Origin: a bacterium
Lineage (GTDB): Bacteria > Patescibacteriota > Minisyncoccia > Phycocordibacterales > GWA1-40-21
Direction of reading: 5' to 3'
Length of the DNA: 36,557 nt
Assembly (NCBI GenBank): GCA_037147155.1
Contig: JBAWVR010000003.1
Location: 1-36,557 of the forward strand
The notes under the pieces are model-generated. The model was not told the DNA's origin. It did not search any database and saw nothing but the letters and a program-made list of their open reading frames with translations. The translations under genes and the position numbers were made by a program. Within the stretch, counting starts at the first letter, position 1, and each line of letters opens with the position of its first letter. This document shows positions 67-36,399 of the stretch, piece after piece.

Positions 67-1881
67 TTATTCAGCCTCCCCCCAACTATCCACCGTCCAA
101 CCACCAGTCGGACCAGACTTAAATTGCATATTGGCAATACCCGTTTCGTAATTAACGTTACCACCACCATCAATATACACGGAGTCACCATAAACCGATT
201 TACAACCTGAACCACCATTAATGTGAACCATACCATTTGGCGCCGCTAGCACAACCGCCCCAGCTCCACCAGAAAGCATTAGAGCTGACGACTGAGAATC
301 AGAATTACAGACAAAATCCAGCGGACATTTTGAAGTTGTTACAATAACAGGATAACTCCCAGCAGTACCAGAACCAGAAAACGCTCCGCCTCCTGCCACT
401 GACACATATCCATCAGCAATAATAACCCCACTCGCTGACCCATACGAAGATGACAGAACAATTTTTCCTCCTCCGGAAACAACTACAACACCTTTGACCC
501 ACACGGTACCAGTCAGAGTTAGTGTTCCACCACCTCCCAAGTTCAAGTTACCGGTAATAACTTTTGGTCCCAATGTACCACCAGTAGAATTATAGGTTTT
601 TGTTCCAACAAAAGTTCCGCCAGCCTCAGCCTCAGCGTGCCAGGCATCTATATTGGCCTCTGATATTGGTACACCTACCGAGGGTGGAGGTAACCCCATA
701 CCAGAACTACCGGCATCACAGGTTTTACTACCCGAAATATTTGTAGCAGTAGCACAATAAAGTTTTCCGGTGGCACTAATATGTTTTATATTTGAAGCCC
801 AAGCGATGTCAGTGGCTTTACTACCAACATTTAAATAATCTCCTTCATAACCATTGATTTCTGAGGCAGTACTACCGAGATAGACAGTAAAATATCCATC
901 GAGACCAGCCGGCGTCGTAGCACTCCAAGCTGAGGTGCTTATGTTTCCAATTTTAGCCTGACCGTTAGCATAAGCTGAATTGGCCCCAACAACATAATAA
1001 TTTGATGAAGCACTATTTGTTGTTCCTTGGATAATCAACCAGTAGGTCTGCCCGGCTGTCAGAGTTACTATTGGGCTAAAAGTTAAATCTACCCAGCCAT
1101 AATTAGTAGTGACCAAGGTTGAGGCTAGAGTTGCAGAAGAAAAGCCAACTGTATCCGGTGCTCCTGCATCATCCAATCTTAATGTGGCAGTGAAACTTCC
1201 CGGTGCCCCTACTTTCTTAACATAAATCGAGATTTTGGAAATTGATGAAGTTGTGGCTACAGTAAAACTTTGAGCAAAATCACGCAAAGTTTTTGATGTA
1301 TTAAAAGAAATACTATTTGGTGGTGTGGTGGGAGTTTCATTGGTAGTATCTTTGATCAACCCTCCAGAACTAGCCGCTACGGCCGAACCATAGATATGAA
1401 TACCTGATCCTCCTTTAATAGAACCGTTCGAGTAAACATTTCCATTGATAGCTGACCCACCTGTAATAGTTAATCCTCCATTACCAATCTGGACGCCGTA
1501 ACTAAAATCTGCCCCCTCCCCTTGTTTAATAATGGTTTTAATTTTTTTATAAAAGTTAGAGACCAGTCCTTCGGCCGTTATAGTCCTGGTCGAGCCACTA
1601 TCTACTGAGGTAGTAGTGGCGTAAGAACCGTCAACTGACAAAACTTCTGTATCAGAATATGGTTGACTTTTTTTCATGCGGTATAATACATCTTCTACTC
1701 CAGACTCTGAAGCATAAAAACTGTTTTTGGAAAACAGCATATTAGAGGTATTGCGAAAATCTTTGGTAACAACATAAGACAAACCAGTGACCACAATTAG
1801 TCCAACAATCAAAAAAAACAGAACGGCCAAAATTACAATAGCCCCTTTTCTCTGATTGTTTTTTGTATTATTTAACATCAT
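67..1881 (-). CDS. Large PilX-like minor pilin / pilus-associated protein with Gly/Ser/Thr-rich beta-rich C-terminus
   Basis: Basic leader ending RKG|AIVIL plus a hydrophobic helix, PilX-type 'SFYASESGVEDVL' motif; last gene of the pilin cluster. Confidence 0.75.
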   Translation of the reverse strand: MMLNNTKNNQRKGAIVILAVLFFLIVGLIVVTGLSYVVTKDFRNTSNMLFSKNSFYASESGVEDVLYRMKKSQPYSDTEVLSVDGSYATTTSVDSGSTRTITAEGLVSNFYKKIKTIIKQGEGADFSYGVQIGNGGLTITGGSAINGNVYSNGSIKGGSGIHIYGSAVAASSGGLIKDTTNETPTTPPNSISFNTSKTLRDFAQSFTVATTSSISKISIYVKKVGAPGSFTATLRLDDAGAPDTVGFSSATLASTLVTTNYGWVDLTFSPIVTLTAGQTYWLIIQGTTNSASSNYYVVGANSAYANGQAKIGNISTSAWSATTPAGLDGYFTVYLGSTASEINGYEGDYLNVGSKATDIAWASNIKHISATGKLYCATATNISGSKTCDAGSSGMGLPPPSVGVPISEANIDAWHAEAEAGGTFVGTKTYNSTGGTLGPKVITGNLNLGGGGTLTLTGTVWVKGVVVVSGGGKIVLSSSYGSASGVIIADGYVSVAGGGAFSGSGTAGSYPVIVTTSKCPLDFVCNSDSQSSALMLSGGAGAVVLAAPNGMVHINGGSGCKSVYGDSVYIDGGGNVNYETGIANMQFKSGPTGGWTVDSWGEAE

Positions 1882-1886
1882 ATTTT

Positions 1887-2534
1887 TTATAAACCTCTAA
1901 TTACTGCGGTCGTACCAAAATCTCCGGTCTTAGTACCAGAAGTCAAAGACATTTTCACAGTCACAGCATTAGTAGAAGTACCAACCGGTCGATATATTTC
2001 AAAACTATTTACTGCCACACCAGGCAAAGTGAGTGCCCCCTGATCAACACCATCTTTCTTCAACTTTAACACTGAACTGTCGAGGTAGAAATCATAGTTG
2101 GTATTTGAACCGTCAGTGTTTTTTGAGTCCAAATACAAACGGCTGGAGGAAGTTCCAAACACACTATTAGCAATATTGATACTGGAAGCCTGACGGGTTT
2201 CAAAAGAAATACGATTGAGAACTGAGACAGCTGAGTTGGTCAGATTTTTTCTCTGAGCCAATTCTTGGTATGATTTGGATAAATAAACTAGAGAGCTAGT
2301 GATGGCCATAACCAAAACAATAAAGATAGCGAGATAGACTAGCATTTCAATCAGAGTGAACCCCGCAGTAGACTTCTGCCTTTGGTCGGTATTGATGTTG
2401 ATTTGGTTAACCATTACTTTTTTCCAATTATTTGCCTTTAATTTTACCACAAATAACACCCGACCTATTAGACAGAAGGCAGAAGTCACTAGCTGGGCAG
2501 GCCCAGTAGTGAGCTTTTGGTTTTTAGTTATCAT
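1887..2534 (-). CDS. Type IV prepilin-like protein (PilW/PulJ-like) with in-frame palindromic insert in its leader
   Basis: G|FTLIEMLVYLAIF N-methylation motif, preceded by a 45-aa segment shared with ORF 3018-3626. Confidence 0.85.
   Translation of the reverse strand: MITKNQKLTTGPAQLVTSAFCLIGRVLFVVKLKANNWKKVMVNQININTDQRQKSTAGFTLIEMLVYLAIFIVLVMAITSSLVYLSKSYQELAQRKNLTNSAVSVLNRISFETRQASSINIANSVFGTSSSRLYLDSKNTDGSNTNYDFYLDSSVLKLKKDGVDQGALTLPGVAVNSFEIYRPVGTSTNAVTVKMSLTSGTKTGDFGTTAVIRGL
2361..2497 (+). mobile_element. Coding palindromic element (family A subtype) inside a prepilin leader, copy 1
   Basis: CCCCGCAGTAGACTTCTGCCTT...AAGGCAGAAGTCACTAGCTGGG; ungapped match to 3465-3601. Confidence 0.85.
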
Positions 2535-3012
2535 AAATATTACTTAAATAAGTGGAGATGCTTTTGGAAGTGGTAACACCTTGTTCCGACCAGGACACCA
2601 TGACTTTTATTTTTTTAATATTTGAATCAACTGCGCCTCCTGCGGCAATAATATCACCAGTCGAACCATCGCGCTTAACATCATAAAAATTAACCGTTCT
2701 AGTAAAACCATCGTCAATCACTGGACTGGTCACAAAAGACCAAACTCGAGAAGTAGTAGCAAAGGATAAATAGTAGGTTGTAGAAGTACTCTTGGTTAAA
2801 ATATTAGTATTCCAGCTAGAATCGCGATTAAAGCGTACCACCTCCAAACCCTCCTCGGTCATAAATGACGCTTTGGCCAAATTGGCAGTTCTCGTCTCCA
2901 TAGTTATAAAAAAACCGTAAGCATTCATAATGGCCACAAAAGCCACAGCGATAATAGCGGCACCAATCAGCACCTCCACCAAGCTCACACCTTTTTTAAA
3001 ATAACTAATCAT
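2524..3012 (-). CDS. Type IV prepilin-like protein (PilV/PulI-like)
   Basis: KKG|VSLVEVLIG motif with short leader; C-terminal KKIKVMVSW. Confidence 0.85.
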   Translation of the reverse strand: MISYFKKGVSLVEVLIGAAIIAVAFVAIMNAYGFFITMETRTANLAKASFMTEEGLEVVRFNRDSSWNTNILTKSTSTTYYLSFATTSRVWSFVTSPVIDDGFTRTVNFYDVKRDGSTGDIIAAGGAVDSNIKKIKVMVSWSEQGVTTSKSISTYLSNIYDN

Positions 3013-3017
3013 TTTTA

Positions 3018-3626
3018 TTAACGAGATATCAAACCGGTCCCTTTTATTTCAATCGTTTTATATTTTGTGGCATCACCAATCATACTAACTCGAAAGGTAC
3101 CATAATTATCTGTCGCGCCGGTCAGTTTTTTGAAAATCACTGTATCAGCACTACCTGCAAAGGAAAAATTTGTTAGAGCAAAATCTGATGAATCAGAAAG
3201 TAATAGTGTCTTATTGCTAGCACTGCCTTCAACGTAAGTTGGCGCCGGAAAAACCACTATTTTATTACTAAAAAACTTGACCCCGTAATTCAGTCCAGCT
3301 AAAGTTGTTGCTGAATTTGCCTTGACTTCCTCCAGGGTGATAGCAATCATGGAGGCCTCTTTTTCTAAACCTTTGGTTTTTTGTCCACCAAGAAAATAAT
3401 AACCAGCTAATGTTGATAAAACACCGATTATACAAATTACCACAAGCAACTCGACCAACGTGAACCCAGCAGTAGACTTCTGCCTTTGGTCGGTATTGAT
3501 GTTGATTTGGTTGACCATTACTTTTTCCCAGTTATTTGCCTTTAGTTTTGCCACAGCAAATATCCGACCTATTAGATAGAAGGCAGAAGTCACTAGCTGG
3601 GCAAATCCATAATTAATATTTTTCAT
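3018..3626 (-). CDS. Type IV prepilin-like protein (FimT/GspH-like) with in-frame palindromic insert in its leader
   Basis: G|FTLVELLVVICIIGVL motif; leader reads MKNINYGF-[45 aa]-GFTL. Confidence 0.85.
   Translation of the reverse strand: MKNINYGFAQLVTSAFYLIGRIFAVAKLKANNWEKVMVNQININTDQRQKSTAGFTLVELLVVICIIGVLSTLAGYYFLGGQKTKGLEKEASMIAITLEEVKANSATTLAGLNYGVKFFSNKIVVFPAPTYVEGSASNKTLLLSDSSDFALTNFSFAGSADTVIFKKLTGATDNYGTFRVSMIGDATKYKTIEIKGTGLISR
3465..3601 (+). mobile_element. Coding palindromic element (family A subtype) inside a prepilin leader, copy 2
   Basis: CCCAGCAGTAGACTTCTGCCTT...AAGGCAGAAGTCACTAGCTGGG. Confidence 0.85.
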
Positions 3627-3633
3627 ATTTAAA

Positions 3634-4866
3634 TTATACCGTATCCATTAAAGAATAAATCGGCAAAATCATGGAAACTGCAAAGAAACCTACAGCTATA
3701 CCAATAAACACCATAAGCACAGGTTCGATGATTGTCGACATGTCTTTGGTTTTTTGTTCTACTTCGGATTCATAATAAGCAGCCACACCCATGAGCATCT
3801 CAGGCATTTTACCAGTCTCCTCACCCACACTCATCATCTCCCCCACAAAAACTGGATAGAGATTTTCGTATTTTGTAAAAATTGACGACACGGTGATACC
3901 CTTACCAACATTTTCATAAGCTTCAGCAATAACCGCTCGATAGTAACTATTCTGTACCACTTCACCAGTAATCTGGATAGCTTCGGCGATCGGTACACCA
4001 GAAGTAATAAGCGAGGACAGAGTGCGGGCTGTGCGGGCCGAGTTGGTTTCTTTGACCAATTCTCCAATAACCGGCAAACGCAAGATGGTAAATTCAAACC
4101 AACGTTGACCGCGTGGGGTTTTATAAAAATAATATAAAGAACCGCCAACAAGTAAAAACAAAAATAAAACCAAAAGAAAATTATGTTGAAAGGCATTGCT
4201 TGCAAAAATAATCAACTTGGTGCTCATTGGTAACTCGACTTTCATTTCTGTAAAAGTTCCAGTGATACTTGGAACAACAAACACAAGCATTAGCACTGCC
4301 ACAATACCAATCACACACAAAATAATTCCAGGATAAATCATGGCGCCTTTGATTTTCTTTTGCAGACGGTTAGTGTTGTCCATTTGTAAGGCCACAATTC
4401 TAAGAGATTCCGACAAGCCACCAGACTCTTCACCGGCCTTGGTCATAGATACAAATAAATTGGAAAAAACCTCAGGATATAATTTCATCGCAGTACTCAA
4501 ACTTTTACCCTGACTAATTTCAGAGTTCAAACTGGCAATAATTTCTTTAAACTTTTTATTATGGATTTGCTTCTCCAATACCATAAGAGCTCGAGACAAG
4601 GATAAACCAGCGCTAATCATAGCTCCCAAATTGCGAGCAAACATAATTTTATCCTGAGCAGAAACATGACCAATGAGACCAGCAAACCAAGCATTGGCTT
4701 TTTTTACCAAACTATCACTCTCTTCATGTTCTTTTTCCTCAATAAAAATAACCGTATCTCCACGGGTTTTAATTTCTTTAAATAGAGCTGGGCGGTCGAG
4801 CACATCCAAATCACCTTCATAAGAAGTGCCATCAGTTTTCATCGCCTTAAAATGAAACAAAGCCAT
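3634..4866 (-). CDS. pilC: Type IV pilus inner-membrane platform protein PilC (GspF family)
   Basis: AGEESGGL, AMIYP, GEETGKM and IEPVLM motifs of two GspF domains; start set to MALFHFKA (4866) because the longer ORF overlaps the divergent gene. Confidence 0.92.
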   Translation of the reverse strand: MALFHFKAMKTDGTSYEGDLDVLDRPALFKEIKTRGDTVIFIEEKEHEESDSLVKKANAWFAGLIGHVSAQDKIMFARNLGAMISAGLSLSRALMVLEKQIHNKKFKEIIASLNSEISQGKSLSTAMKLYPEVFSNLFVSMTKAGEESGGLSESLRIVALQMDNTNRLQKKIKGAMIYPGIILCVIGIVAVLMLVFVVPSITGTFTEMKVELPMSTKLIIFASNAFQHNFLLVLFLFLLVGGSLYYFYKTPRGQRWFEFTILRLPVIGELVKETNSARTARTLSSLITSGVPIAEAIQITGEVVQNSYYRAVIAEAYENVGKGITVSSIFTKYENLYPVFVGEMMSVGEETGKMPEMLMGVAAYYESEVEQKTKDMSTIIEPVLMVFIGIAVGFFAVSMILPIYSLMDTV

Positions 4867-4953
4867 AACTAGTCTATATTTTAACACAAAATTTTCCACA
4901 AAACCAAAGAATTTGGAGAATGAACAAGCTTTTGCTATGATTTGTTTATAATT

Positions 4954-6012
4954 ATGAGAAAAATCTTTCAACATTCATTTAGACTCGCTGTTATTATCTT
5001 TGCTATTCTCGGACTAGGCTTCGTCTCAGTCTATTTTGCTGTTAAATACGGCCTAACCAATACCAAAGGTATTATTGATCAACAAAATGAGGCTTTTTGG
5101 CAAAGTGCCGAAAGTGACACTGTAGTCAACAAAAAACTTTTGACCGAAGAAAAACTGTGCAAGTTAAATGTTATAAAGAAAAAGTTTCCAATGGAGGCAA
5201 AGAGATTGGCTAAAATGTTATTGGGAAACCTAGGTGAAACAGCTGACAAAGCGATTAGTAATTCTCTTTTGGTGATTGAACCAAATAATAATACTTGCGC
5301 AAGTAAAAACAACTTGGCCAATGCTTCAGCTTTCAATGATATTGCCAATTACATTGAGAAGACTAGTCCTTATGCTTGGGTTAACAGCCAAGAATGGGAA
5401 ACTTTTAGAGACGCAGTTAGCCGCGATCAGGATGTATTAAAGCAAGTAGAAAAAGAGACCGGAATTAAGTCACGTTTATTGGTAGCTGAGCTCATGGCTG
5501 AGCAACTACGTTTATTCTATTCCGAGCGAGACTTATTCGAAAGAGTTTTTGCTCCAATTAAAATTCTCGGTAGTCAAACTCAATTTTCTTGGGGTATTAT
5601 GGGATTAAAGCCTGACACGGCCATTGCAATTGAGAGGAATTTGAAAGATGCCACTTCCCCATTTTACCTTGGCACTCAACACCAAAACACTTTGAACTTC
5701 AAAACTTCTGATATTGATCAGGAAAGATTCGAAAGAATCACGGATGAACACAATCATTATTATGCTTATTTATATTCCGCAATTTACAATCTTCAAATTA
5801 TTAATCAGTGGAAAAAAAGTAATGTCGATATTTCCAATCGCCCAGAGATTCTTGCCACCTTATACAATATTGGTTTTGCCAACTCTACACCAAAAGCTGA
5901 CCCACAGATTGGCGGAGCGGAACTAGACATTGCGGGACAGACTTATAGTTTTGGTCGCTTAGCCAATGAATTCTACTATTCTGACGAGCTGACTGATTTG
6001 TTTCCGTATTAA
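4954..6012 (+). CDS. Membrane-anchored protein with possible lysozyme-like (transglycosylase-like) C-terminal domain
   Basis: N-terminal TM helix; LLVAELMAEQ, SWGIMGL and ATLYNIG resemble SLT motifs I-III. Confidence 0.5.
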   Translation: MRKIFQHSFRLAVIIFAILGLGFVSVYFAVKYGLTNTKGIIDQQNEAFWQSAESDTVVNKKLLTEEKLCKLNVIKKKFPMEAKRLAKMLLGNLGETADKAISNSLLVIEPNNNTCASKNNLANASAFNDIANYIEKTSPYAWVNSQEWETFRDAVSRDQDVLKQVEKETGIKSRLLVAELMAEQLRLFYSERDLFERVFAPIKILGSQTQFSWGIMGLKPDTAIAIERNLKDATSPFYLGTQHQNTLNFKTSDIDQERFERITDEHNHYYAYLYSAIYNLQIINQWKKSNVDISNRPEILATLYNIGFANSTPKADPQIGGAELDIAGQTYSFGRLANEFYYSDELTDLFPY

Positions 6013-6063: not shown

Positions 6064-7839
6064 TTAATCCTGAATTTTTAGATTATTTACCAACCCGTCC
6101 AAATCTCTTGTTTTTAACACTCCGCCAAAATTCTCATTATCCGTAGCACCAACTTTCCTCAAAATCAGTGTTTTATTGTCTGGCAATGGAAAAGCATAAA
6201 TTGTAATCTGCTTATCTGCAGAATCATCGCCCACTCTCATACAATCATAACCCTGATATTTTATAAAACCATCACCATAACCAATAATATTGGCATTAGT
6301 AACATAAGTCTCGAAATCTAAGTCGCTAACCACCACATTTAATCCACCTTCCTCAAAAACTGAGCAAGATTTATCTGCACCTATGGTTTTTCCGGCGCAG
6401 GTTTCATTCTTATTTACCCGGTCAGCCCAAACTTTTGGAACAATGTCGACCGAAGCCAGAGTAACAACTTCTGGCTGAATATCTTTATTATTTTCGCTTA
6501 CCCCATTAATCACAACAAAATCTTTTGGGTAATCGAAAGAAAAACCAAAACGATCACTACCATATGTTCCCTCTGGTATTGAATTAGCAGCTGATTTTTG
6601 TGAGATAACATTTGAGCTATTTTTTAATGATTCGTATATCAACTTTGTCGCATTAATAAGGACTGGTTCGGTACTTTTAGTGTACGTGACCATATCGCTC
6701 TTTCCTCCCCCGTAACAGGCTGTGGCACCGCTAACGTCCGTGCAGGCAGAAATCATTTTACCTCCTATGGAAATAAAATCCTTTGATGTTATAGGGACCT
6801 CATTGGCATAAATTGCGATACCAGAAACATAAGACGGTCCAGTTGCACCCAGGGTGTCCTTAACTTGTCTGACTATCCAATTTTGGGGATGTTTAAAAGA
6901 TATCATCAACTGTGAATCAGTATATGTTGTCCAGTCAGCAGTCTGGTTAGTTATGGCGGCTGCGGGTTTTTTGATAAAAGAATCAATAATCTTTTCTCCA
7001 ATCTTAAACTCTTCCGTCGCATTTTTTACACTATTGGGTACCTCTATATTCCACCAAGACTGGGCTGGTTTTTCAGAACTACCAAAATCAGCATGGTGTG
7101 TTATAGCAACACCACCAGGAGAATTTAAGCCATCACTAGACGACCAAAACATGATTCTGTAGCTAACATTAGTCCCCTTAAAACCTTCTAGATCGTTACG
7201 GGCAGGACTTTCAATTGTCACTGAAGGATATCTTTCTGTAATAATTGTTTTACTACTATCAACCACTTTCCATTCAGCTGGATACTTGAATTCGAAGCCG
7301 TATTCATCATTTACATATGCTTTCCAACCATCTGATAATTTTTTTGAACTAAATTTTAGAGAATCTATAATCTCTTGTTCAATTTTTTTATACTCGGCAC
7401 TTGATGCCGCTAAAGTTACTTTTATCGATTGATCTTTATAACAAATATCTTTGTATTCAAGTAGACCATATCCGACTGTCCAATCGGAATCAATACAATT
7501 TATATCTTTATTTACCGCCACACTATCTCTTGGATCACCCGTATCCGGTCTAGGTTTTTGTTTTGTATCAACAATTCTGATTTTGTTGTTATCTAAATTT
7601 TCTACCATCCAATCTGCAGGGTGTTTGATAACTAGACCATAATTTGTGTTCTCAACTGATAACCATCCAGGATATTTTTCTTCAGTAAGTTGCTGACCAT
7701 TTGCTGAAATTTTGGCTCTTTCTATTTGTTTTGTTTTTAAATACAACCCGCCCCAAACGATTAGAGCAATGGCACAAATAATTAATAAAATTGCTATTGT
7801 TAATTTTGAACCTTTATTTGTCTGTGTGTTTTCTTCCAT
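6064..7839 (-). CDS. Membrane-anchored surface protein with four PsbP-like (W..Y.N..YGF.F.YP..W) modules
   Basis: TM helix followed by YGLVIKHPADW, YGFEFKYPAEW, LMISFKHPQNW and FGFSFDYPKDF; start MEENTQ lies 6 nt after TATAAT. Confidence 0.7.
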   Translation of the reverse strand: MEENTQTNKGSKLTIAILLIICAIALIVWGGLYLKTKQIERAKISANGQQLTEEKYPGWLSVENTNYGLVIKHPADWMVENLDNNKIRIVDTKQKPRPDTGDPRDSVAVNKDINCIDSDWTVGYGLLEYKDICYKDQSIKVTLAASSAEYKKIEQEIIDSLKFSSKKLSDGWKAYVNDEYGFEFKYPAEWKVVDSSKTIITERYPSVTIESPARNDLEGFKGTNVSYRIMFWSSSDGLNSPGGVAITHHADFGSSEKPAQSWWNIEVPNSVKNATEEFKIGEKIIDSFIKKPAAAITNQTADWTTYTDSQLMISFKHPQNWIVRQVKDTLGATGPSYVSGIAIYANEVPITSKDFISIGGKMISACTDVSGATACYGGGKSDMVTYTKSTEPVLINATKLIYESLKNSSNVISQKSAANSIPEGTYGSDRFGFSFDYPKDFVVINGVSENNKDIQPEVVTLASVDIVPKVWADRVNKNETCAGKTIGADKSCSVFEEGGLNVVVSDLDFETYVTNANIIGYGDGFIKYQGYDCMRVGDDSADKQITIYAFPLPDNKTLILRKVGATDNENFGGVLKTRDLDGLVNNLKIQD

Positions 7840-7845
7840 GTAAAA

Positions 7846-7885
7846 ATTATACCACGAAAAATGAAATACTAATTTCATCTCGTGG
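7846..7885 (-). promoter_or_regulatory. Family D hairpin fused to an extended -10 (TGGTATAAT)
   Basis: CCACGAGATGAAATTAGTATTTCATTTTTCGTGGTATAAT, near-identical to 14514-14553. Confidence 0.7.
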
Positions 7886-7889
7886 CAAG

Positions 7890-10982: not shown

Positions 10983-11123
10983 CCCGGTTGTGAGCTTTGG
11001 CATCGTTTTTGAAAATTGTGCTTTGTAATTAAACTAAATGTCTAATTAGCAAAACAGACTCTGATGTAATATCAGAGTCTGTTTTGGGCAAAAACAATTT
11101 TAATGCCAAAGTCTACAACGGGG
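10983..11123 (-). mobile_element. Palindromic MITE-like element, family A copy 1
   Basis: Ends CCCGGTTGTGAGCTTTGGC / GCCAAAGTCTACAACGGGG; internal hairpin CAGACTCTGAT-ATCAGAGTCTG; abuts the fusA TAA. Confidence 0.75.
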
Positions 11124-13375: not shown

Positions 13376-13516
13376 CCCGGTTGTGAGATTTGGCGTCGTT
13401 TTTGAAATTGCGTTTAATTACCGTTTTTAATTATCAAATTAGCAAAACAGGTTTTAGCACTAAACTGCATTACATTTTAAACAAAAACAATTTCAACGCC
13501 AAATTCTACAACGGGG
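13376..13516 (-). mobile_element. Palindromic MITE-like element, family A copy 2
   Basis: CCCGGTTGTGAGATTTGGCGT...ACGCCAAATTCTACAACGGGG; 141 bp; shares ATTAGCAAAACAG and CAAAAACAATTT with copy 1. Confidence 0.75.
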
Positions 13517-13521
13517 TCAAT

Positions 13522-13650
13522 CCCGTTGTAGACTTTGCCATCAAAATATGAATTTTATCCAGGTTTGTGTATGATCTTTTTTTATAGCCAGGACGCAGTT
13601 TGCACAATTAGTCAGTTTTCGAAGAAAACAATGGCAAAGCTCACAACCGG
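13522..13650 (+). mobile_element. Palindromic MITE-like element, family A copy 3 (inverted relative to copy 2)
   Basis: CCCGTTGTAGACTTTGCCAT...ATGGCAAAGCTCACAACCGG; divergent interior. Confidence 0.7.
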
Positions 13651-13771
13651 ACAAAGGAGTTGGGGCGGGCCTGGATGGTCGAACCTTCCCAGGCTCGCCC
13701 TTGCATTTTCCTAGTTTAGTTCTAGACTGATTGTAAGTGTTCTTTTCTCAAAACTAACCAGGAGGTCCACA

Positions 13772-14362: not shown

Positions 14363-14547
14363 TACGAGATGAGCCCTCGAATTTCTTGCCCCGCGATTAA
14401 ATTCGCGTGCCCAGAGATGAAATTAATATTTCATTTTTCTGGGAATTTAATTTTACGGAAGCCTGCCCCGCGATGAAAATTATTTATTTTCATTTTGCGG
14501 GGTTCATGGCTTGCCACGAGATGAAATTCTGATTTCATTTTTCGTGG
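14363..14547 (+). repeat. Cluster of about 5 related short hairpins (family D), one nested inside another
   Basis: Units of the form stem-G-ATGAAA...TTTCAT-TTT-stem at 14410-14443, 14466-14502 and 14514-14547; outer unit 14391-14458; degenerate unit 14363-14388. Confidence 0.75.
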
Positions 14548-14559
14548 TATAATTTCCCC

Positions 14560-15574: not shown

Positions 15575-15587
15575 ATATTTTTCTTTA

Positions 15588-15673
15588 CCCGTTAAAGTTT
15601 TGGCTGACACATTAAGCATCTTGCTTAATGTCTGGAAAATCTATGATTTTCTATCAGTCAAAATTTTCTCGGG
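15588..15673. repeat. 86-bp structured repeat (family C) in the rpsL-rpsG spacer
   Basis: One mismatch to 17368-17453; CCCG...CGGG ends, an outer stem and two internal hairpins. Confidence 0.9.
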
Positions 15674-15684
15674 TGAATTAATAA

Positions 15685-16101
15685 TTATTTAGCTGCCTTT
15701 GGTCTCTTTGTACCATATTGACTGCGACCTTTTCGGCGACTCTCAACACCAGTAGCGTCGAGAACACCACGAACGATTGTGTAACGCAAACCAACATCCT
15801 TAACACGACCACCACGGAGTACTACTACGGAGTGTTCCTGCAAGTTGTGTCCCATTCCTGGGATATAAGCGGTAACTTCCAAGCCGTTAGACAACTTCAC
15901 ACGAGCGATTTTACGCACAGCGGAGTTAGGCTTCTTTGGTGTCTTGGTAGTAACTTTTGTACAAACTCCACGCTTAAATGGAGAAGCATAAAACTTCGGA
16001 CGGTTCTGAATCGTATTGAATCCACGCATCAAAGCCACCGCTTTGGTCTTGCGAGGTGTAGTCTTACGATTTCTTTTAACTAATTGATTAACTGTAGGCA
16101 T
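15685..16101 (-). CDS. rpsL: 30S ribosomal protein S12
   Basis: [25 protein letters not shown] and RGGRVKD. Confidence 0.99.
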
Positions 16102-17355: not shown

Positions 17356-17367
17356 AAAATTTGTTTA

Positions 17368-17453
17368 CCCGTTAAAGTTTTGGCTGACACATTAAGCATC
17401 TTGCTTAATGTCTGGAAAATCTATGATTTTCTATCAGTCAAAATTTTTTCGGG
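17368..17453. repeat. 86-bp structured repeat (family C) in the 5' leader of the response regulator
   Basis: Near-identical direct repeat of 15588-15673; lies between a TATAAT (about 17476-17481, minus strand) and the ATG. Confidence 0.9.
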
Positions 17454-17504
17454 ATTATTATTATCTATACGTATATTATACCCCACCAGAGACTTTTAAC
17501 CAAA

Positions 17505-18516: not shown

Positions 18517-18655
18517 CCCCGTTGTAGAATTTGGCGTCGAAATTGTTTTTGACGCGACAGACTCTGGTGAAATACCAGGGTCTGTTTTGTTATATTTTTC
18601 GTGATTATTAAAAAACGTCAATTTCAGAAAAACAACGCCAAATCTCACAACTGGG
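18517..18655 (+). mobile_element. Palindromic MITE-like element, family A copy 4
   Basis: CCCCGTTGTAGAATTTGGCGT...ACGCCAAATCTCACAACTGGG; abuts the rpmB TAA; internal hairpin CAGACTCTGGT-ACCAGGGTCTG. Confidence 0.75.
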
Positions 18656-29267: not shown

Positions 29268-30422
29268 TTAATCTATAATAATACTATTTCGTACACACTT
29301 ACTTCCCGCTCGAGAATAAGTATAGGTGGTATCAGCCGGCTTACAAGTCCAATCACAAGCCTTTAAATCAACATCGCTAGTAGAAACTGGCACGAAGGTC
29401 CAATTCTTGTCTGTAGCACTAATAGGTAATTTATCACTCAGAATTCTAACGTAGCCAGTTGGGGCCGAACCAAGACAAGACTTTGTTGTTGCTCCACCAG
29501 TAGTTCCACCGGTTGTTCCACCACCAGTCGTACCACCTCCACCAACGGGGATATCCACACAGTTATTACCAACTTTTTCTTGTCCCGCACCACAAATAAC
29601 AATGTTGGCACAACCATTACCCACAACCTCTTGTCCGTCAGGACAAACTCTTACACATTCACCATTAACCAATTCTGCCCCTTCAGGACAAACACATTGG
29701 CCATTATTATTTACTAATCCTTCCCCACAGGCCGCACAATAGCTTCCAGTATCACTAGGAATTATTTTATCACCAGCACAACAATCACCATTATCATCGC
29801 GCGCTTCGTTATTTCCACAACTACCGCCAGGATTGTTGGTGGTGGTATTCATAAAATCAATCCAACCAACAATACTACCACCCCAGGCATAACCAAGAAG
29901 ATGATTATTGGTTCCACTTTTTACTCCATAACTACTTTTTCCATCAATAGTTTTACCGGCTAGAGAAATCCAACCATCCCAACCATCAGTTCGGGAAACT
30001 GTGCCACATCCACCATCGATACTACCAGCACAGGCTCTGGCCCAACCAGAAAGATTCTGATTTGAGTCAATTTGGGCAGTACATGTTCCGTCTGGACAAC
30101 CAGTCAATTTTGTAGAGTCGAAAGTTATCCAACCAATGTTGTCAGACCAAACATATCCACACAATTCTCTAGATATAGCATTGTCTGTGGCAGACTTTTT
30201 CACCCCAATACCGTATTCTCCTTGGTTCTCACCTAAATGTATCCAGCCAATAGTATCAGACCAAGCATAACCCCCCAGGCGTCCTGTTAGGACACCACTG
30301 CAACCGGGCAAGTTAGTATCAGCTTCGACACTATTTATTCTCACAGAACTCAAAAACCCACCGGCAAAGATGGATATAATCAGGAGAAAAAATGTAGTTA
30401 GAAAGATTTTTTTATTTTTCAT
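29268..30422 (-). CDS. Secreted GYxWSDxIGWI-repeat protein with Cys-rich repeats
   Basis: Signal peptide; GYAWSDTIGWI, GWDGWISL and C-x-C-P-x-G repeats; short paralog of 31819-36399. Confidence 0.8.
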   Translation of the reverse strand: MKNKKIFLTTFFLLIISIFAGGFLSSVRINSVEADTNLPGCSGVLTGRLGGYAWSDTIGWIHLGENQGEYGIGVKKSATDNAISRELCGYVWSDNIGWITFDSTKLTGCPDGTCTAQIDSNQNLSGWARACAGSIDGGCGTVSRTDGWDGWISLAGKTIDGKSSYGVKSGTNNHLLGYAWGGSIVGWIDFMNTTTNNPGGSCGNNEARDDNGDCCAGDKIIPSDTGSYCAACGEGLVNNNGQCVCPEGAELVNGECVRVCPDGQEVVGNGCANIVICGAGQEKVGNNCVDIPVGGGGTTGGGTTGGTTGGATTKSCLGSAPTGYVRILSDKLPISATDKNWTFVPVSTSDVDLKACDWTCKPADTTYTYSRAGSKCVRNSIIID

Positions 30423-30515
30423 TGATTGCTAAAATGTTTTTAATAAATGGTTTAACTTTGCTAATAGATAAAGTTAAATTACTTGCTAAATTATAACACT
30501 CAAACAATAAAAAGA

Positions 30516-30553
30516 AAAACCGCGAGCCTGACTTTCGTCGGACTCGCGGTTTT
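30516..30553 (-). terminator. Intrinsic terminator
   Basis: AAAAACCGCGAG...CTCGCGGTTTTT. Confidence 0.8.
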
Positions 30554-30567
30554 AATATTACCAAACT

Positions 30568-31791
30568 TTAATATATAACTACTACTCTTGTGTTATACAT
30601 CTTTTCGCTTGAATAGCCACTGGCTGTAACATTCACAGTGTATGCAGTGCCTTCTACCACCGGTATTGTTCCCATTAAAGTAAATGCTCTACTTCCACCA
30701 ACATTATTCAACACATTTGACCGCGCATAATCAAGCTCAGTCCCCCCAACCGACAAAACATATTTTATTGTTGCGGTGTAATTACCAGAAATATCACCTT
30801 TTGCCAAAATCAAAACATTTCCAGTCTTGGAAGCAGTAAAAGTGTATGTATAAGTCATCGGATTTGTTATATAAGTATCATAAGCTGCCTGCTTATCAGA
30901 TATACTAAAACCTAAACCTTGATTGCCTGTGTTCAGCGCCTGCCAACTTCCCACTCCATTTGCATCAGATGTCAGAACCTTACCCGCCGCTGGTGCACCA
31001 CCAGTTATTTTAACTTGACCAGCCACTTCCAGTGTAGCTGTTGGATTAACTACCCCGATACCAACATTACCTCCGAGTGGGTTCAATGTTATTGGCCAGG
31101 CAGTATTATTACTTACCTTAGCTTGCATCCAGTATGCCCAAGGGCTAGCAGTGAAGACACCTTGACTCAGCTCAACTCCAGCCGTTTCAAACGAGATAGC
31201 TGATGGCGCCCCAAAGGTCAGAGTTGGGTCATAGTTTGTAGTACCTGCATTAACATCTAATTTAGAATTTGGCGCATTGGTTCCGATCCCCACATTTCCT
31301 GTAGTATAATAAATATTTGCACCAGAAGTAGTCCATTGGGATGCAGATCCGAGACTTTTGGTGGTAACCCAGTAATCAGCCGAGGTGGTCGAAAACATAT
31401 CTCTCTGAGATTTCCAATAATCTGTAGAAGTAGTACCCCAACCATTATTACTAATTGAACCATTACCCACACAAACCCCATTAATTGCCACGCATCCACC
31501 GGTCAAATTAATTCCTCCAGAAAAAGTGGCAGTCGCATTGGACGTGGAGAAAATTCGTCCACCGAAAAGGGCGTTACCATTTACTTGCAATTTTGCCCTG
31601 GTCGGTTGATCAAGCAACATGTCATCACCCAATATCAAATTACCTAGCTTTGTTTGTTCAACATCTCCAGCATGGATTGGAGTTGGCAAATTATCTTCTG
31701 GTGGAACACCGGTCGGACCAGTCCAAGCATACAGGTATCCAGCACCAACAAGGAGAGAAGTAACAAAAAGTAATTTAATAGTGTTTTTCAT
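30568..31791 (-). CDS. Secreted tail-fibre/adhesin-like protein
   Basis: Signal peptide; AWTGPT module, GNVGIGT..P...L.V.G repeats and GKVLTSDANGVGSW. Confidence 0.75.
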   Translation of the reverse strand: MKNTIKLLFVTSLLVGAGYLYAWTGPTGVPPEDNLPTPIHAGDVEQTKLGNLILGDDMLLDQPTRAKLQVNGNALFGGRIFSTSNATATFSGGINLTGGCVAINGVCVGNGSISNNGWGTTSTDYWKSQRDMFSTTSADYWVTTKSLGSASQWTTSGANIYYTTGNVGIGTNAPNSKLDVNAGTTNYDPTLTFGAPSAISFETAGVELSQGVFTASPWAYWMQAKVSNNTAWPITLNPLGGNVGIGVVNPTATLEVAGQVKITGGAPAAGKVLTSDANGVGSWQALNTGNQGLGFSISDKQAAYDTYITNPMTYTYTFTASKTGNVLILAKGDISGNYTATIKYVLSVGGTELDYARSNVLNNVGGSRAFTLMGTIPVVEGTAYTVNVTASGYSSEKMYNTRVVVIY

Positions 31792-31818
31792 AATTTAATA
31801 ATAACAAATAATGATTCT

Positions 31819-34800
31819 TTAATCTAGAATAATAGTGTTTTTGAAACAGCGGTTACCACCACGAGAGTAAATATTCTTGGAATTTGCAGCTTTACATGTC
31901 CACTCGCAAACCTTTAAATCCTTACTTCTAGTCTTGACGGGCATAAATGACCAGACTAGCTTTGTGCTTGGAGTAACCAAAGCTTTATTAACACTTGATG
32001 CTCCGGAACGAACATAGCCATAAGGTCTAACTCCACCACAATATTGAATTGTTTTATCAGTTACACACTTTCCATCAGCATTTTCAGTCTGCCCAATCGG
32101 ACAACCTTGAACACAAACACCCAAGAGTTCAGCTCGCCCTTCTGGACAATCCGCCACACACTGACCACTGTTCTCCACTTCAGTTAATGAACAATTATCA
32201 ACACAGTCTGTACCATCAGAGGATTCTACCTGCCCTTCTGGACAATCTTTAACACATCTACCATCGATTGGAATATCTCCTTCATTACACTGATCCTGAC
32301 AAACGCCATCTGACTCAATCTTATCACCGCAATCCATAACACATTGTCCAGCTACATCTTTATAACCTGGATCACAATCTAGATTACACATTCCATTAGC
32401 TTCGTCTTTGGTATATCCATTTGGACAATCAATGAGACATTCGTCCATGAAATTGTACTCATTCTCCTGACAGATCTTCTTGCATTCTCCATCAACTGAT
32501 TCGTAACCATCTAAACAACCAGCGATACATTCTTGATTAAATTCAACCTCTGGCGGGGTACAAGTATTTTTACAAATACCATTGTCATCAACTTCACCTC
32601 CACCACAACCATCCTGACAAATTCCATCTACATTCACTTGCCAATCAGCACAAATATTCGTACATTCACCATATGATTCTACCTGTCCATCTGAACACTG
32701 TAGAGCACAGTGCGCTGGTGGAGGAATCTCGGACTGAATTTGACCTTCCGGACAATCCAAAACACACTGTCCACCATCTGCCTTGTAACCCAAACCACAG
32801 TCTTTGACACAGATTCCATCTGATTCAACATAGCCCACAGCGCAATCCAAAACACATTCATTACCAAAATCTTTGTATCCCTGTAAACAATCCAATACGC
32901 ACTGACCATCACCATTATCTTTGTATCCTTCTCCACAATCTATTAAATCTATTACGCATTGACCGTTCTTCTCTATTTTGCCTTCATCACAAATAATCAC
33001 ACACTCCCCGGCTACTTCTCTGTATTGTGATGGACACTCCGGAACACAAACACCAGCCAACTTTACTAAGCCATCTGAACACACATCTGTACAAATACCA
33101 TCTTGAGCTACCTGACCATCTGTACATCCATCTTTACACTCACCATTTGACTCAACCATCCCCAATGGACAGCTCGTGGTGATACACTGGCCGCTAAAAT
33201 CTACGGTGCCATCTGGACAAACAGTTCGACATTCATTTTCAAACAACACCTCTCCTTCCCGACAGACATCCACACACACCCCAGTTGTTGATTTGACTTT
33301 ACCCAAAGCTTCACAATCCGGTACACAAATATTAAATTCCATTTTTTCATTAGCAGGACATTCACATACACCATTCACGGCTTCTGATCCACCTAAACAG
33401 CTTGGAACACAAGTACCTTGATAAGTCACTTTACCCAATTGTTCACAAGTTATAATACTAATACACTGACTATCATAATATGTCATGTCCTCCGGACAGA
33501 CGGTGACACATTGTCCAGCCACATCTTCCTTGCCATCTGGACACAAACACTGTCCGTCTACCTCCACTTTTTCCCCTGCACAAACCTGGCAGTAGGTATT
33601 TCTGATTGTTTGACCCAAGAGACCAGTTGTAATAGTTGTAACCAGCTTATTATTTTCTAGTGTGGCCGGACAACAAATACCATTATCATCTTTTACTTCT
33701 CCATTCGCACAGGTAGCAAAATCTATCTTGACATCAAAGAAATCCAGCCATCCCAAAACATCACTACCCCAAGCAAAACCCGTGAGAGCGTCACCTGACA
33801 GTCCAGATATGCCATATTTTTCGCGGGCTGTAGTTGTACCTGATAGAGAAATCCAACCATCCCAACCACCATTGAGTGAACCTTTTAAGCTTGCTGGATC
33901 AGTGATAGTTCTTACTACTGTGGTAGTTACTGGTGTTCCACCAATATCAACTAGAGTGTAAGTTGAAACATTGGTTGGAACATTTATTGTACTAGTTGAG
34001 GTCACTGGTTTAGAAACATATATTTTACCTCCGTAAACAACTGCAGTCAGAATACTACCGTTGTCCGATACGGCCACAGAACGCCACACCCTGGCAACAT
34101 CGCTTGTCCTTGGATACCAGTAATCACCAGTACTTGTAGACATATATAGATATCCACCACTAACCACAGCAGCCTGTATCGAGCCGCCAGCAGACATTGC
34201 TACACCCTGCCAGTCTAAATTAGGAGTTTTTTGGTACCAATTTGTACCAGAATTCTTTGTTGTATATATTTTAGACGGAGTCAGGCCAGTAAAACCTGCA
34301 ACCAAATCTGGATCACTACCAGCAACAACCGTTCTAACAGTACCATTACTGGACATAGAGGTATTTACTTTATAACCATAAGGAACTCCTCTGTAACCAC
34401 TAACCCAACCAGCCCCTTTATCAATATCCCAAGTACCAACCACAGATTTAATCAAGCCATTTTGAGTAATATAAGTGTCATAAAAACCAGTGCAACCAGG
34501 ACCACTTTCGGATAAAAAAGTTTTGCCATAATTTGTAGAATAATAAACACAACCGGTACCCATGTCTCCATAATAATTATTTTCTGAAAACATTTGTTTA
34601 CTACCATCAGCAGACATCGCCGCCGATGTCCACATTGAACCCGCTAAATTTTTACTAACATTCACCCAGGTGTTGCCCGAGGTTGTTGAAACAAAAACCC
34701 CATCCCAACCAGCAGCCAGTTGATATGTACCTGTTGCAGATACAGCAATCGAACGCCAGCCACGGTTTACATCGGTCATTTTCCCTGTCCAAGAATCACC

Positions 34801-36399
34801 AGAATCGTTTGATTCGTAAATATAACCACCTTTTTCAACTGCCGCTTGCATTACACCATCACGTGAAACTGCAACATCAACCCAGTTTCTATTCTTGTCT
34901 GTCGCTTTCTCTAACCAATTGTCTCCGTACCCACCAGTAGTAGTCGTGACTGTTTGAGGAACATTAACCACAGTGGTACTAGTCTCTATTCTCTTATTTG
35001 GAGAAATCGAAGTATAAATTGTGCCGTTTTCTTGAACCGCAGTCATAACTGAGCCATCAGCGGAAACTGCTACACCAGTCCAACCACCAGCTGGTGCTGT
35101 TTTTTTCTCCCAATACAAACCGGTGCTTGTGGAAACATATATTCTGCCCTCGCCTGGTTGAGTCGCTGTGTCTCCCCAAGACACTGCCACCTGCACACTG
35201 CCATCAGCAGTCATGTCCACATCTGTCCAACTCATTTGTGCGTACTGAGAGCCAAGTTGTGTCCACTTACTTCCAGTAGTGGTTGATATATATATCGTTC
35301 CCTCAGCCATAAGACCAGTTAGTATCGAACCATCTGCGGATGACTGCATAACATTGAAATTATCGAAATTCCTGAAACTAGTATTGACCGTCGGCCAAGA
35401 GCCATTGGTTAAACCATGATTTATTGATATACCCAAAAAACCATCACCACCAGCATCGACGGCCATAAATTCTTTACTGCCATCTGAGGTAATAGCCACA
35501 CCACGTGGATCTGCGCCCATATCATAAACTGTCCAGCTCGCGCCATAAGTTTGCGATACGCCAGCCAGAGCCGAATCACTGATAGCTACCTGATATTGCC
35601 CACTGTTGGACATAACAACTTTTTTCCAACTAGCTCCACATCCTGTACAGCCAGTGGCCGTCCAAGTATTGCCATAGTCCGAAGAAGTGTAGATCGAACC
35701 GCCATTCACCACTGCCGTTTGATATTTTCCATCTGTAGATGGATCAGTTGACATGGCCACACTGGTCCACATACGATTAGTAGAAGTTGCTGTCCAAGTC
35801 TCTCCATAATCCTTGGATAAATAAATTTTGCCACCATTAACAACCGCCGTTTGGAGTTTTCCATCCGAGGACATGGCTACACCAGACCAATTTCTATTAA
35901 CAGTCGTCTTTTGTACCCAAGTATCCCCCGCTGGTTTAGTAACATATGTCGTCACGGTTGAAGTAGATAGAATTTTTCCACTACCAGTATATTCCCCGCA
36001 CATGCCATCAGTACTACCCGCACAAGCTCTGGCCCAACCAGAAATATTTTTATTAGACATGCCATCGATTTTGGCTGTACATTCACCAGCAGGACAATTA
36101 TTTAAATCCAGGGCATTAAAAGATACCCAGCCGATATTATCTGCCCAGCCATAACCACAGAGATTTTTGTCAGATTTTATACCCACACCATAAGTACCCT
36201 CATTTTCTCCAAGACTAATCCAGCCAATATTGTCAGACCAGATATAGCCACTGAGGCGACCGATCAAACTATCACTACAACCTGGCAAATTGGTATCAGC
36301 TGTCACTTTTTCTATTTTGAAATCACGAAAAGAACTTCCAGCAAAAATAGCTGCAATTAAAAGAAGAAAGGTAAAAAGAAAAAGTTTTTTATTTTTCAT
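31819..36399 (-). CDS. Giant secreted protein: GWI-repeat domain, two beta-propeller-like (W..VA.S.DG / S.D.G.TW) blocks, long Cys-rich repeat stalk and conserved C-terminal domain
   Basis: 1526-aa ORF with all motifs directly visible. Confidence 0.85.
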   Translation of the reverse strand: MKNKKLFLFTFLLLIAAIFAGSSFRDFKIEKVTADTNLPGCSDSLIGRLSGYIWSDNIGWISLGENEGTYGVGIKSDKNLCGYGWADNIGWVSFNALDLNNCPAGECTAKIDGMSNKNISGWARACAGSTDGMCGEYTGSGKILSTSTVTTYVTKPAGDTWVQKTTVNRNWSGVAMSSDGKLQTAVVNGGKIYLSKDYGETWTATSTNRMWTSVAMSTDPSTDGKYQTAVVNGGSIYTSSDYGNTWTATGCTGCGASWKKVVMSNSGQYQVAISDSALAGVSQTYGASWTVYDMGADPRGVAITSDGSKEFMAVDAGGDGFLGISINHGLTNGSWPTVNTSFRNFDNFNVMQSSADGSILTGLMAEGTIYISTTTGSKWTQLGSQYAQMSWTDVDMTADGSVQVAVSWGDTATQPGEGRIYVSTSTGLYWEKKTAPAGGWTGVAVSADGSVMTAVQENGTIYTSISPNKRIETSTTVVNVPQTVTTTTGGYGDNWLEKATDKNRNWVDVAVSRDGVMQAAVEKGGYIYESNDSGDSWTGKMTDVNRGWRSIAVSATGTYQLAAGWDGVFVSTTSGNTWVNVSKNLAGSMWTSAAMSADGSKQMFSENNYYGDMGTGCVYYSTNYGKTFLSESGPGCTGFYDTYITQNGLIKSVVGTWDIDKGAGWVSGYRGVPYGYKVNTSMSSNGTVRTVVAGSDPDLVAGFTGLTPSKIYTTKNSGTNWYQKTPNLDWQGVAMSAGGSIQAAVVSGGYLYMSTSTGDYWYPRTSDVARVWRSVAVSDNGSILTAVVYGGKIYVSKPVTSTSTINVPTNVSTYTLVDIGGTPVTTTVVRTITDPASLKGSLNGGWDGWISLSGTTTAREKYGISGLSGDALTGFAWGSDVLGWLDFFDVKIDFATCANGEVKDDNGICCPATLENNKLVTTITTGLLGQTIRNTYCQVCAGEKVEVDGQCLCPDGKEDVAGQCVTVCPEDMTYYDSQCISIITCEQLGKVTYQGTCVPSCLGGSEAVNGVCECPANEKMEFNICVPDCEALGKVKSTTGVCVDVCREGEVLFENECRTVCPDGTVDFSGQCITTSCPLGMVESNGECKDGCTDGQVAQDGICTDVCSDGLVKLAGVCVPECPSQYREVAGECVIICDEGKIEKNGQCVIDLIDCGEGYKDNGDGQCVLDCLQGYKDFGNECVLDCAVGYVESDGICVKDCGLGYKADGGQCVLDCPEGQIQSEIPPPAHCALQCSDGQVESYGECTNICADWQVNVDGICQDGCGGGEVDDNGICKNTCTPPEVEFNQECIAGCLDGYESVDGECKKICQENEYNFMDECLIDCPNGYTKDEANGMCNLDCDPGYKDVAGQCVMDCGDKIESDGVCQDQCNEGDIPIDGRCVKDCPEGQVESSDGTDCVDNCSLTEVENSGQCVADCPEGRAELLGVCVQGCPIGQTENADGKCVTDKTIQYCGGVRPYGYVRSGASSVNKALVTPSTKLVWSFMPVKTRSKDLKVCEWTCKAANSKNIYSRGGNRCFKNTIILD

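Follow-up and report, generated by a model that had tools for sequence, protein, structure and literature searches.

A palindromic repeat lodged in frame in the leaders of prepilin-like genes of a small-genome bacterium, with its end at the predicted peptidase cleavage site

The window considered here is the whole of contig JBAWVR010000003.1, a stretch of 36,557 nucleotides (nt) which forms contig C3 of an assembly from the bacterial phylum Patescibacteriota (GCA_037147155.1, referred to below as G000; 876,459 bp in 90 contigs, 39.5% G+C, 98.85% complete), and the subject is a palindromic DNA element of about 137 nt, two copies of which lie in frame within the leaders of two prepilin-like genes of this window. 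The genes belong to a minus-strand series which begins with the gene for a PilC-like platform protein (3634-4974) and continues through an insert-bearing pilin gene (3018-3626), a pilin gene without an insert (2524-3012), the second insert-bearing gene (1887-2534) and a gene for a 604-residue protein (67-1881); the coordinates of all features are collected in Table 1. Both insert-bearing genes score above the cut-off for the Pfam family N_methyl (26.6 and 25.9 bits, with a cut-off of 21.2), and in both of them the motif starts at a position that is not near the N-terminus. A first-pass annotation made from the sequence alone had described these two pilins as otherwise dissimilar and the pilin between them as having a short leader free of any insert, and both descriptions are borne out: the mature parts have 9 of the 16 residues at the N-terminus in common and are unrelated beyond that point, and the intervening gene encodes a leader of only eight residues.

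Alignment of positions 2356-2500 with 3460-3604 by blastn gives an identity of 91.7% over 144 nt without a gap, the similarity ending at the left edge of the element, and a repeat search reports the corresponding pair as direct-repeat family D1 (2338-2518 against 3442-3622). The minimum free energies computed for the RNA are -43.6 kcal/mol for copy A and -51.2 kcal/mol for copy B (z of -4.5 and -7.1), and none of 200 shuffled sequences is as stable. The alignment and the folding energies agree with the earlier claim of an ungapped 137-nt hairpin element common to both pilin genes, and the 12-nt arms that had been named are present and pair in both copies. The claim of sameness requires some amendment, since the shared element is indeed ungapped but the two copies are not identical; they match at about 92% of positions, and they differ mainly in the central loop (10 of 60 nt, compared with 4 of 81 nt in the arms). 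A search of Rfam with permissive E-values over positions 1800-3800 of the window returns three weak matches at chance level, none of which falls on the element and none of which is better than E 0.3. The possibility that the copies are an artefact of assembly is ruled out by error-free contigs from other studies' runs, identical in sequence, which span both junctions of both copies. No empty allele at the window copies is present among the contigs of those runs, the depth of which is low and which leave parts of the stretch without cover.

Across the genome, the in-frame copies number five, two in the window, two on contig C31 and one on contig C5 (the last two contigs being adjacent, as judged from a metagenome contig of the same organism), and every one lies in a pilin-like gene. 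The genome has nine matches to N_methyl and one further element-carrying gene that is pilin-like, so that five of the ten recognised pilin-like genes are occupied; this further gene, the fifth to bear an insert (P0002, on C31), retains the Gly-Phe pair and is without Glu(+5) and without an N_methyl match. The geometry is the same in all five. The core measures exactly 137 nt, which together with four junction bases makes 141 nt or 47 codons, and it is 47 codons that separate the upstream Gly from Gly(-1), the codon of which is the terminal GGG of the element. The arithmetic proposed in the first-pass annotation, according to which the removal of 47 codons restores a normal leader whose Gly(-1) is supplied by the element, therefore holds for both genes of the window. 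The further claim that the element can be read through without a stop also stands, as the coding frame has no stops across the insert in any of the five copies, in comparison with between one and seven in the other two sense frames.

The part of the leader that precedes the insert is 7-14 residues long and basic, with a charge of +1 to +4, and it resembles a normal leader ending in Gly. Counted from the first ATG, the full leaders extend to 54-61 residues, which is well beyond a short basic leader. The peptide encoded by the insert is weakly hydrophobic and has a net charge of +4 to +7, a combination that fits a segment which stays on the cytoplasmic side. An in-frame ATG is situated 18 codons before Phe(+1) in each of the five copies of this genome. 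One of the insert-bearing pilin genes is adjoined by a Peptidase_A24 gene (G000:C31:307-639, 55.6 bits). Gene callers differ on the start of the insert-bearing gene at G000:C31:783-1535 (P0001/P0156), for which one public annotation gives a 220-residue product that starts inside the element and other sources give 250 residues.

The five pilin copies are members of a larger repeat family. An nhmmer profile built from the first copies identifies 44 copies at E<1e-5, distributed over 27 of the 90 contigs of the 876-kb genome; five are wholly inside long open reading frames (ORFs), all of them pilin-like, and the remainder are intergenic or touch gene ends, so that the intergenic relatives which the first-pass annotation had proposed to look for account for 39 of the 44 copies. 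Two subfamilies can be distinguished, a rarer one with ten copies (the five in pilin genes and five that are intergenic) and a commoner one with cores mostly of 138-141 nt. Across the family the cores range from 130 to 141 nt and contain no transposase gene of their own. In the pilin frame, every intergenic copy of the rarer subfamily is closed by 2-4 stops. Among the non-pilin copies as a whole, 11 of the 38 evaluated are open in that frame; all belong to the commoner subfamily, nearly all represent one closely similar sequence, and their cores of 130 and 139 nt would lose the frame with a duplication of 3 or 4 nt. A consensus fold computed on nine copies of the rarer subfamily comprises 23 pairs with 98.5% of cells paired and with compensatory changes at seven pairs. 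None of 500 shuffles reaches these values, and slid controls are only 31-58% paired.

The distribution of the family outside this genome is patchy. Of 300 further genomes sampled from the order, 15 contain the right-end motif of the family. The right-end pattern of the subfamily has no match in 52 other genomes of the bacterial family, nor in the genome contigs database, and in metagenome contigs it is found in only three contigs, which come from the same organism and are 99.98-100% identical.

Most of the non-pilin copies have short direct repeats at their flanks, of the kind that transposition leaves. The element ends were anchored by alignment, and the count of flanking repeats covers the 37 non-pilin copies in which both ends are aligned. 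Of these, 28 are bordered by an exact direct repeat of 3 nt or longer, in most cases TTA or TTG, the repeat reaching 4 nt or more in seven; when the flanks are re-paired among the copies as a control, the mean count is 8.5 and the maximum is 17. In 11 other genomes of the order, 12 of the 13 copies that were read by eye from a print-out carry flanking repeats, mostly of 4 nt. At the five pilin copies, the four bases to the left of the core are invariably Y-Y-T-G, and those to the right are TTY followed by A or G. The element is small, has inverted ends, is present in many copies with a patchy distribution and is bordered by target duplications at most of its non-pilin copies, though at none of those in pilin genes; as judged from these sequence features, it is a non-autonomous DNA transposon of about 137 nt, a miniature inverted-repeat transposable element (MITE).

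Some further features of the surroundings of the non-pilin copies may be recorded here. Eighteen of the 39 overlap the end of an ORF of at least 80 codons by 1-15 nt, this being the 3' end in the cases inspected, and there the TTA duplication is read on the opposite strand as the stop codon TAA. Several copies of the rarer subfamily adjoin the sequence TTGACA, which could act as a -35 box and is followed by a plausible -10 box. The TTGACA that follows three intergenic copies was considered as a part of the element, and this was provisionally set aside in favour of a possible TTG duplication within a target that resembles a -35 box.

Comparison with related genomes reveals the same sites in an empty state. 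A genome of the same genus, G001, has the same operon order, with pilins of 156, 168 and 162 residues whose leaders are 10, 9 and 12 residues long, followed by the gene for a 605-residue protein. The orthologue of 3018-3626 is the 156-residue pilin (L015:1631-2101, 10-residue leader), that of 1887-2534 is the 162-residue pilin (L015:2605-3093, 12-residue leader), and each window pilin aligns with its orthologue with a single gap that spans the insert. For the C5 gene and one C31 gene, the orthologues in G001 have leaders of 6 and 13 residues, so that the comparison covers four insert-bearing genes, all but the second C31 gene (P0002). A search with the C31 pilin P0001 against 1.84 billion representative proteins supplies both states of that site: P0007, which is 89% identical to P0001 over residues 50-250, has a 13-residue leader and no insert, and P0006, which is 63-64% identical, has the same 47-codon insert in a frame that is open from a normal short leader, with the internal Met of the insert replaced by Thr. 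The alignment of orthologues recommended in the first-pass annotation thus yields five empty alleles, the four of G001 (leaders of 6-13 residues) and P0007. That annotation had also named two outcomes which would speak against a mobile insert, and neither is what is found: the orthologues do not all carry the long leader, as it is short in G001 and P0007, and a gene family that is translated only from the internal Met and lacks both empty alleles and intergenic relatives is at variance with the Thr of P0006, with the empty sites and with the 39 non-pilin copies.

These comparisons bear directly on the view that the insert is an inherited long leader or pro-peptide which has been homogenised among paralogues, so that the resemblance would be one of protein homology and mobile DNA would have no part in it. 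Such a view would account for an insert that is common to five pilin genes, and type IVb pilins do have longer leaders. It is very hard to reconcile, however, with intergenic relatives that have stops in every frame, with flanking duplications and compensatory changes in the arms, with short leaders in the syntenic operon of G001 although the pilin paralogues predate the split, or with window pilins whose mature parts are unrelated beyond 16 residues, and it is considered highly improbable.

Prepilin peptidases require Gly at position -1, work at the cytoplasmic face and tolerate leaders of varied length. The mechanism proposed for the present case begins with the placement of one MITE lineage in five prepilin genes, exactly between the Gly codon of the leader and the codon of Phe(+1). 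The terminal GGG of the element would serve as the new Gly(-1) with Phe directly after it, and the prepilin peptidase site would therefore be rebuilt at the right end of the insert. Translation could start at the old start codon, which would give the leader of 54-61 residues, or at the in-frame ATG within the element, which would give a leader of 18 residues, and the peptidase would be expected to cut after the new Gly whichever start is used. If the cut falls after the new Gly in either case, then the mature pilin would be unchanged and the insertion would be nearly harmless. The interpretation preferred here, to which a probability of roughly three in four is assigned, is that a mobile MITE of about 137 nt is tolerated in the prepilin leader, rebuilds the cleavage site and is removed by the peptidase, leaving the mature pilin as it was. 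The repeat family, its inverted ends and duplications, the geometry of the insert and the filled and empty sites are observed, and it is on these that translation through the insert, its cleavage and its neutrality are predicted. The leader would then be a tolerated landing place in a gene-dense genome, and it looks like a lodging place for selfish DNA that does not alter the mature protein. Similar reasoning seems to apply to the non-pilin copies at gene ends; in a genome as dense as this one, the insertions which survive appear to be those that rebuild what they interrupt.

The existence of two candidate starts also admits the alternative that translation begins only at the internal ATG, the insertion having cut the gene off from its old start while providing a new start and an 18-residue leader, in which case the open frame upstream would be a leftover. 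The occurrence of the ATG at the same distance from Phe(+1) in all five copies would be explained in this way, and the public annotation of the C31 gene does begin within the element, at a different internal ATG (the 220-residue product P0156). The right end of the commoner subfamily can also carry an ATG of its own, since in roughly half of its copies the same frame there gives Met-Pro-...-Gly. Shine-Dalgarno-like motifs occur in just 67 of 491 long ORFs and are absent before both candidate starts, and neither start is therefore favoured by them. What an exclusively internal start would leave unexplained is that all five copies are stop-free from the old ATG with exactly 47 codons while the five intergenic copies of their subfamily are all interrupted by stops, that P0006 lacks the Met and yet has a frame open from a normal short basic leader, and that two distant proteins, P0036 and P0139, have the same arrangement of leader and 47 codons. 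This alternative is accordingly improbable.

Several observations weigh against a tolerated MITE that is removed with the leader, and they are best considered together. An exact flanking duplication is found at none of the five pilin copies, so that the mark which a simple, separate transposition into each gene would leave is lacking; the uniform left junction reflects either the decay of the left duplicate or copying between pilin paralogues by way of the conserved codons of the mature N-terminus. Since a 137-nt core and a 4-bp duplication (the Phe codon and one further base) make up the 141 nt of the insert, only a 4-nt event fits the reading frame, and the commonest duplication in this genome, which is of 3 nt, would break the frame if combined with a 137-nt core. 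No DDE_Tnp_1 or DDE_Tnp_4 transposase is present in the 98.85%-complete assembly, these being the two transposase families for which a search was made. The empty P0007 is nearer to P0001 (89%) than is the filled P0006 (63%), so that a single old insertion would require a later precise loss. The site has therefore either been hit twice or lost the element precisely, and each of these courses would mean mobility at exactly this site. The element-coded leaders of P0001 and P0006, finally, differ by no insertions or deletions and keep about 60% of their residues, and are thus about as conserved as the mature protein, a degree of conservation that exceeds pure neutrality and hints at constraint or function.

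If there is such a function, the element may be a domesticated module, that is, mobile DNA which is now kept because its mRNA hairpin, its ATG or the long leader sets the translation, mRNA stability or processing of what are mostly minor pilins. The retention of length and of about 60% of the residues of the insert between P0001 and P0006, the mature proteins of which are at 63-64%, would agree with this, as would the strength of the hairpins (-28 to -51 kcal/mol, z of -2.0 to -7.1), the internal ATG in all five copies of this genome, the occupation of half of the pilin-like genes, and the filled alleles in samples from other studies, which are identical and, at low depth, unaccompanied by an empty allele. 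The pattern of substitution within the element points in another direction. Between element copies, the ratio of non-synonymous to synonymous differences per site (pN/pS) lies at 0.6-1.0, and synonymous sites in the arms are conserved too, which indicates that the constraint is on the DNA or RNA arms and not on the peptide; on the question of whether conservation is at the level of the hairpin or of the protein, which the first-pass annotation had raised, the compensatory pairs and the pN/pS values decide for the hairpin. These values give no sign of a selected peptide, and conservation of the arms is in any case expected of transposon ends. The four G001 orthologues and P0007 manage without the element, and the Met that would serve as the alternative start is Thr in P0006. 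The presence in another genome of the genus, G002, of unrelated palindromes at other leader positions, where they do not supply the Gly, is more in keeping with tolerance than with a specific function. Domestication is for these reasons regarded as unlikely, although it deserves more weight than the other alternatives.

The G002 palindromes also bear on the generality of leader inserts. In that genome, palindromes are found in frame in the leaders of two pilin-like genes, the one that follows pilC and the one that follows the peptidase gene, at L016:6700-6970 (minus strand) and L023:1369-1530. The two palindromes differ from each other and are unrelated to the element, and each of them precedes the Gly codon; one forms a near-perfect inverted repeat (about 30 bp, with a short loop) and the other measures about 100 bp. 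Leader inserts are present in 7 of the 26 pilin-like genes read in three genomes of the genus (5 of 10 in this genome, none of 9 in G001 and 2 of 7 in G002). Among the orthologues of the C31 pilin in the family (30 loci, 27 of them with a recognisable motif), 5 of the 27 have leaders of at least 37 residues, three of these being outside the genus, where the classification is by leader length. The 150 best representative proteins include 140 with the motif, of which 16 have called leaders of more than 35 residues; several of these leaders resemble translated repeats, and some may be start-codon miscalls. In three of the 140 (P0006, P0036 and P0139), a short leader ending in Gly is followed by exactly 47 codons and then by Gly-Phe. 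P0036 and P0139, which are distant and known as proteins only, have Gly-Phe-Thr after the short leader and 47 codons to the next Gly-Phe-Thr, a layout that would be expected of a fresh 4-bp event.

A palindrome of the type found in a G002 pilin leader also occurs at two places in the present genome (G000:C34, about 1850-1900, and G000:C1, about 34820-34860), where it adjoins two intergenic copies of the element, so that different repeat families gather in the same intergenic spots.

A broader proposal, which is offered tentatively and may well prove too general, is that the prepilin leaders of ultra-small bacteria serve generally and repeatedly as landing sites for small palindromic mobile DNA, and that at least one MITE lineage has become compatible with leaders. 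Such a MITE may be one that comprises 47 codons with its junction, is free of stops, encodes a positively charged peptide and ends in a Gly codon.

The features of the element can be compared with those of several known systems. Rickettsia palindromic elements (RPEs), as they are described in a review (PMC10969869), are palindromic repeats of about 150 bp which are inserted in frame in coding genes and translated as an extra peptide. The present element resembles them in its in-frame insertion into protein genes, of which there are five instances here, a likeness of arrangement. It differs in that RPEs are found in many unrelated genes and stay in the finished protein, whereas each in-frame copy here is found where a class III signal peptide meets the mature part, the Gly of the cleavage site comes from the element's own end, and the extra peptide is predicted to be removed; the host, moreover, is a freshwater bacterium with a tiny genome and not a Rickettsia. 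The same review describes intragenic prokaryotic MITEs (ERIC, BOX, QMITE1 and the Anabaena MITEs) as small, multi-copy elements with inverted ends, short target duplications and hairpin transcripts, some of which form in-frame fusions, and the terms 'signal peptide' and 'leader' are absent from its text (PMC10969869). No published case of a MITE or a palindromic element within a prepilin leader or a signal peptide came to light in the literature searches. The Correia elements of Neisseria are likewise small and multi-copy, with inverted ends, short target duplications and transcripts that form hairpins. The present case differs from all of these in that the in-frame copies of one lineage are confined to prepilin leaders, where they rebuild the Gly(-1) codon, a situation for which the literature searches returned no counterpart.

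Transposons and MITEs of the IS5 and PIF-Harbinger groups generate target duplications of 3-4 bp that are rich in TTA or TAA. The duplications of 3-4 nt seen here, among which TTA is common, are similar to these, but the assembly has no match to DDE_Tnp_1 or DDE_Tnp_4. Type IVb prepilins, for their part, have a cytoplasmic leader that is cut after Gly(-1) by a Peptidase_A24 enzyme, and their leaders of 15-30 residues are processed normally. The leaders considered here are longer, at 54-61 residues, and 47 of those residues are contributed by a mobile repeat which close orthologues lack.

The window contains four intergenic copies of the commoner subfamily in addition to the two copies in pilin genes (Table 1), and it also contains several other repeats. 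An identical 54-nt sequence with a short palindrome rich in G+C is found at seven contig ends (36502-36557 of the window, and C36, C38, C49, C54, C76 and C83); it probably represents a further repeat family, or else the terminus of an insertion sequence that was not assembled and that interrupts the contigs. Family D5 consists of three neighbouring palindromes of about 42 nt at 14405-14550 with an inverted 60-nt partner at 7830-7889, about 6.6 kb away (pairs I1 and I4), and family D3 is a 109-nt direct repeat, 93% identical, at 15580-15688 and 17360-17468, 1780 nt apart. Many short direct repeats occur in the large genes of 29700-36300 (D2, D4, D6, D10, D12 and D16-D18), where they resemble repeated Cys-rich modules.

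Table 1. Positions in the window of the pilin-operon genes, of the two in-frame copies of the element with their junctions, and of the intergenic copies
Feature	Position	Strand	Remarks
PilC-like platform protein	3634-4974	minus	Pfam T2SSF; lies immediately before the pilin genes; used to anchor synteny with G001 and G002
Prepilin-like gene, 202 residues	3018-3626	minus	7-residue original leader, 47-codon insert and mature part; N_methyl motif from residue 51
Pilin-like gene, 162 residues, between the two insert-bearing genes	2524-3012	minus	8-residue leader, no insert
Prepilin-like gene, 215 residues	1887-2534	minus	11-residue original leader, 47-codon insert and mature part from Phe; N_methyl motif from residue 55
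604-residue protein, downstream of the pilins	67-1881	minus	Syntenic with the 605-residue protein of G001; no Pfam match
Element copy A, 137-nt core, CCC to GGG	2361-2497	minus	Finishes with the Gly(-1) codon of 1887-2534, at 2361-2363
Element copy B, 137-nt core	3465-3601	minus	Matches copy A at about 92% of positions; finishes with the Gly(-1) codon of 3018-3626, at 3465-3467
In-frame ATG within copy A	2412-2414	minus	18 codons before Phe(+1); possible alternative start
In-frame ATG within copy B	3516-3518	minus	18 codons before Phe(+1)
Four-base junction of copy A, between old leader Gly codon and core	2498-2501	minus	Perhaps the decayed left copy of a 4-bp target duplication
Four-base junction of copy B	3602-3605	minus	Still yields Gly-Phe before the insert
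Intergenic copy, commoner subfamily	10983-11123	plus	TTA on both flanks
Intergenic copy, commoner subfamily	13376-13516	plus	TCAA on both flanks
Shorter intergenic copy, commoner subfamily, 131 nt	13521-13651	minus	Flank TTG; tail to tail with the copy at 13376-13516
Intergenic copy, commoner subfamily	18517-18655	minus	Flank TTA

In-frame MITEs are known, and they normally stay in the finished protein; here the insert sits in the part that is predicted to be discarded, and its own end remakes the cleavage site. This would explain how selfish DNA persists within genes for an essential surface structure in a genome that has almost no spare room. If the broader proposal on leaders is also correct, the element would be a mobile one that is removed at the protein level by a signal peptidase, and it could move between pilin genes, or back to the same site, without the mature pilin ever being altered. 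Type IV pili are thought to be central to host attachment and DNA uptake in these small bacteria. The long leaders derived from the repeat could affect the expression of the pilins and do affect their annotation, as is clear from the public gene call that starts within the element; on the broader proposal, the pilin genes of these lineages would be systematically assigned wrong starts or missed by signal-peptide predictors. With three unrelated palindromes in leaders in two species of one genus, long leaders in 5 of 27 orthologues of the family, and the 47-codon layout in three further distant relatives, the leader pattern is a recurrent one and should be searchable across metagenomes.

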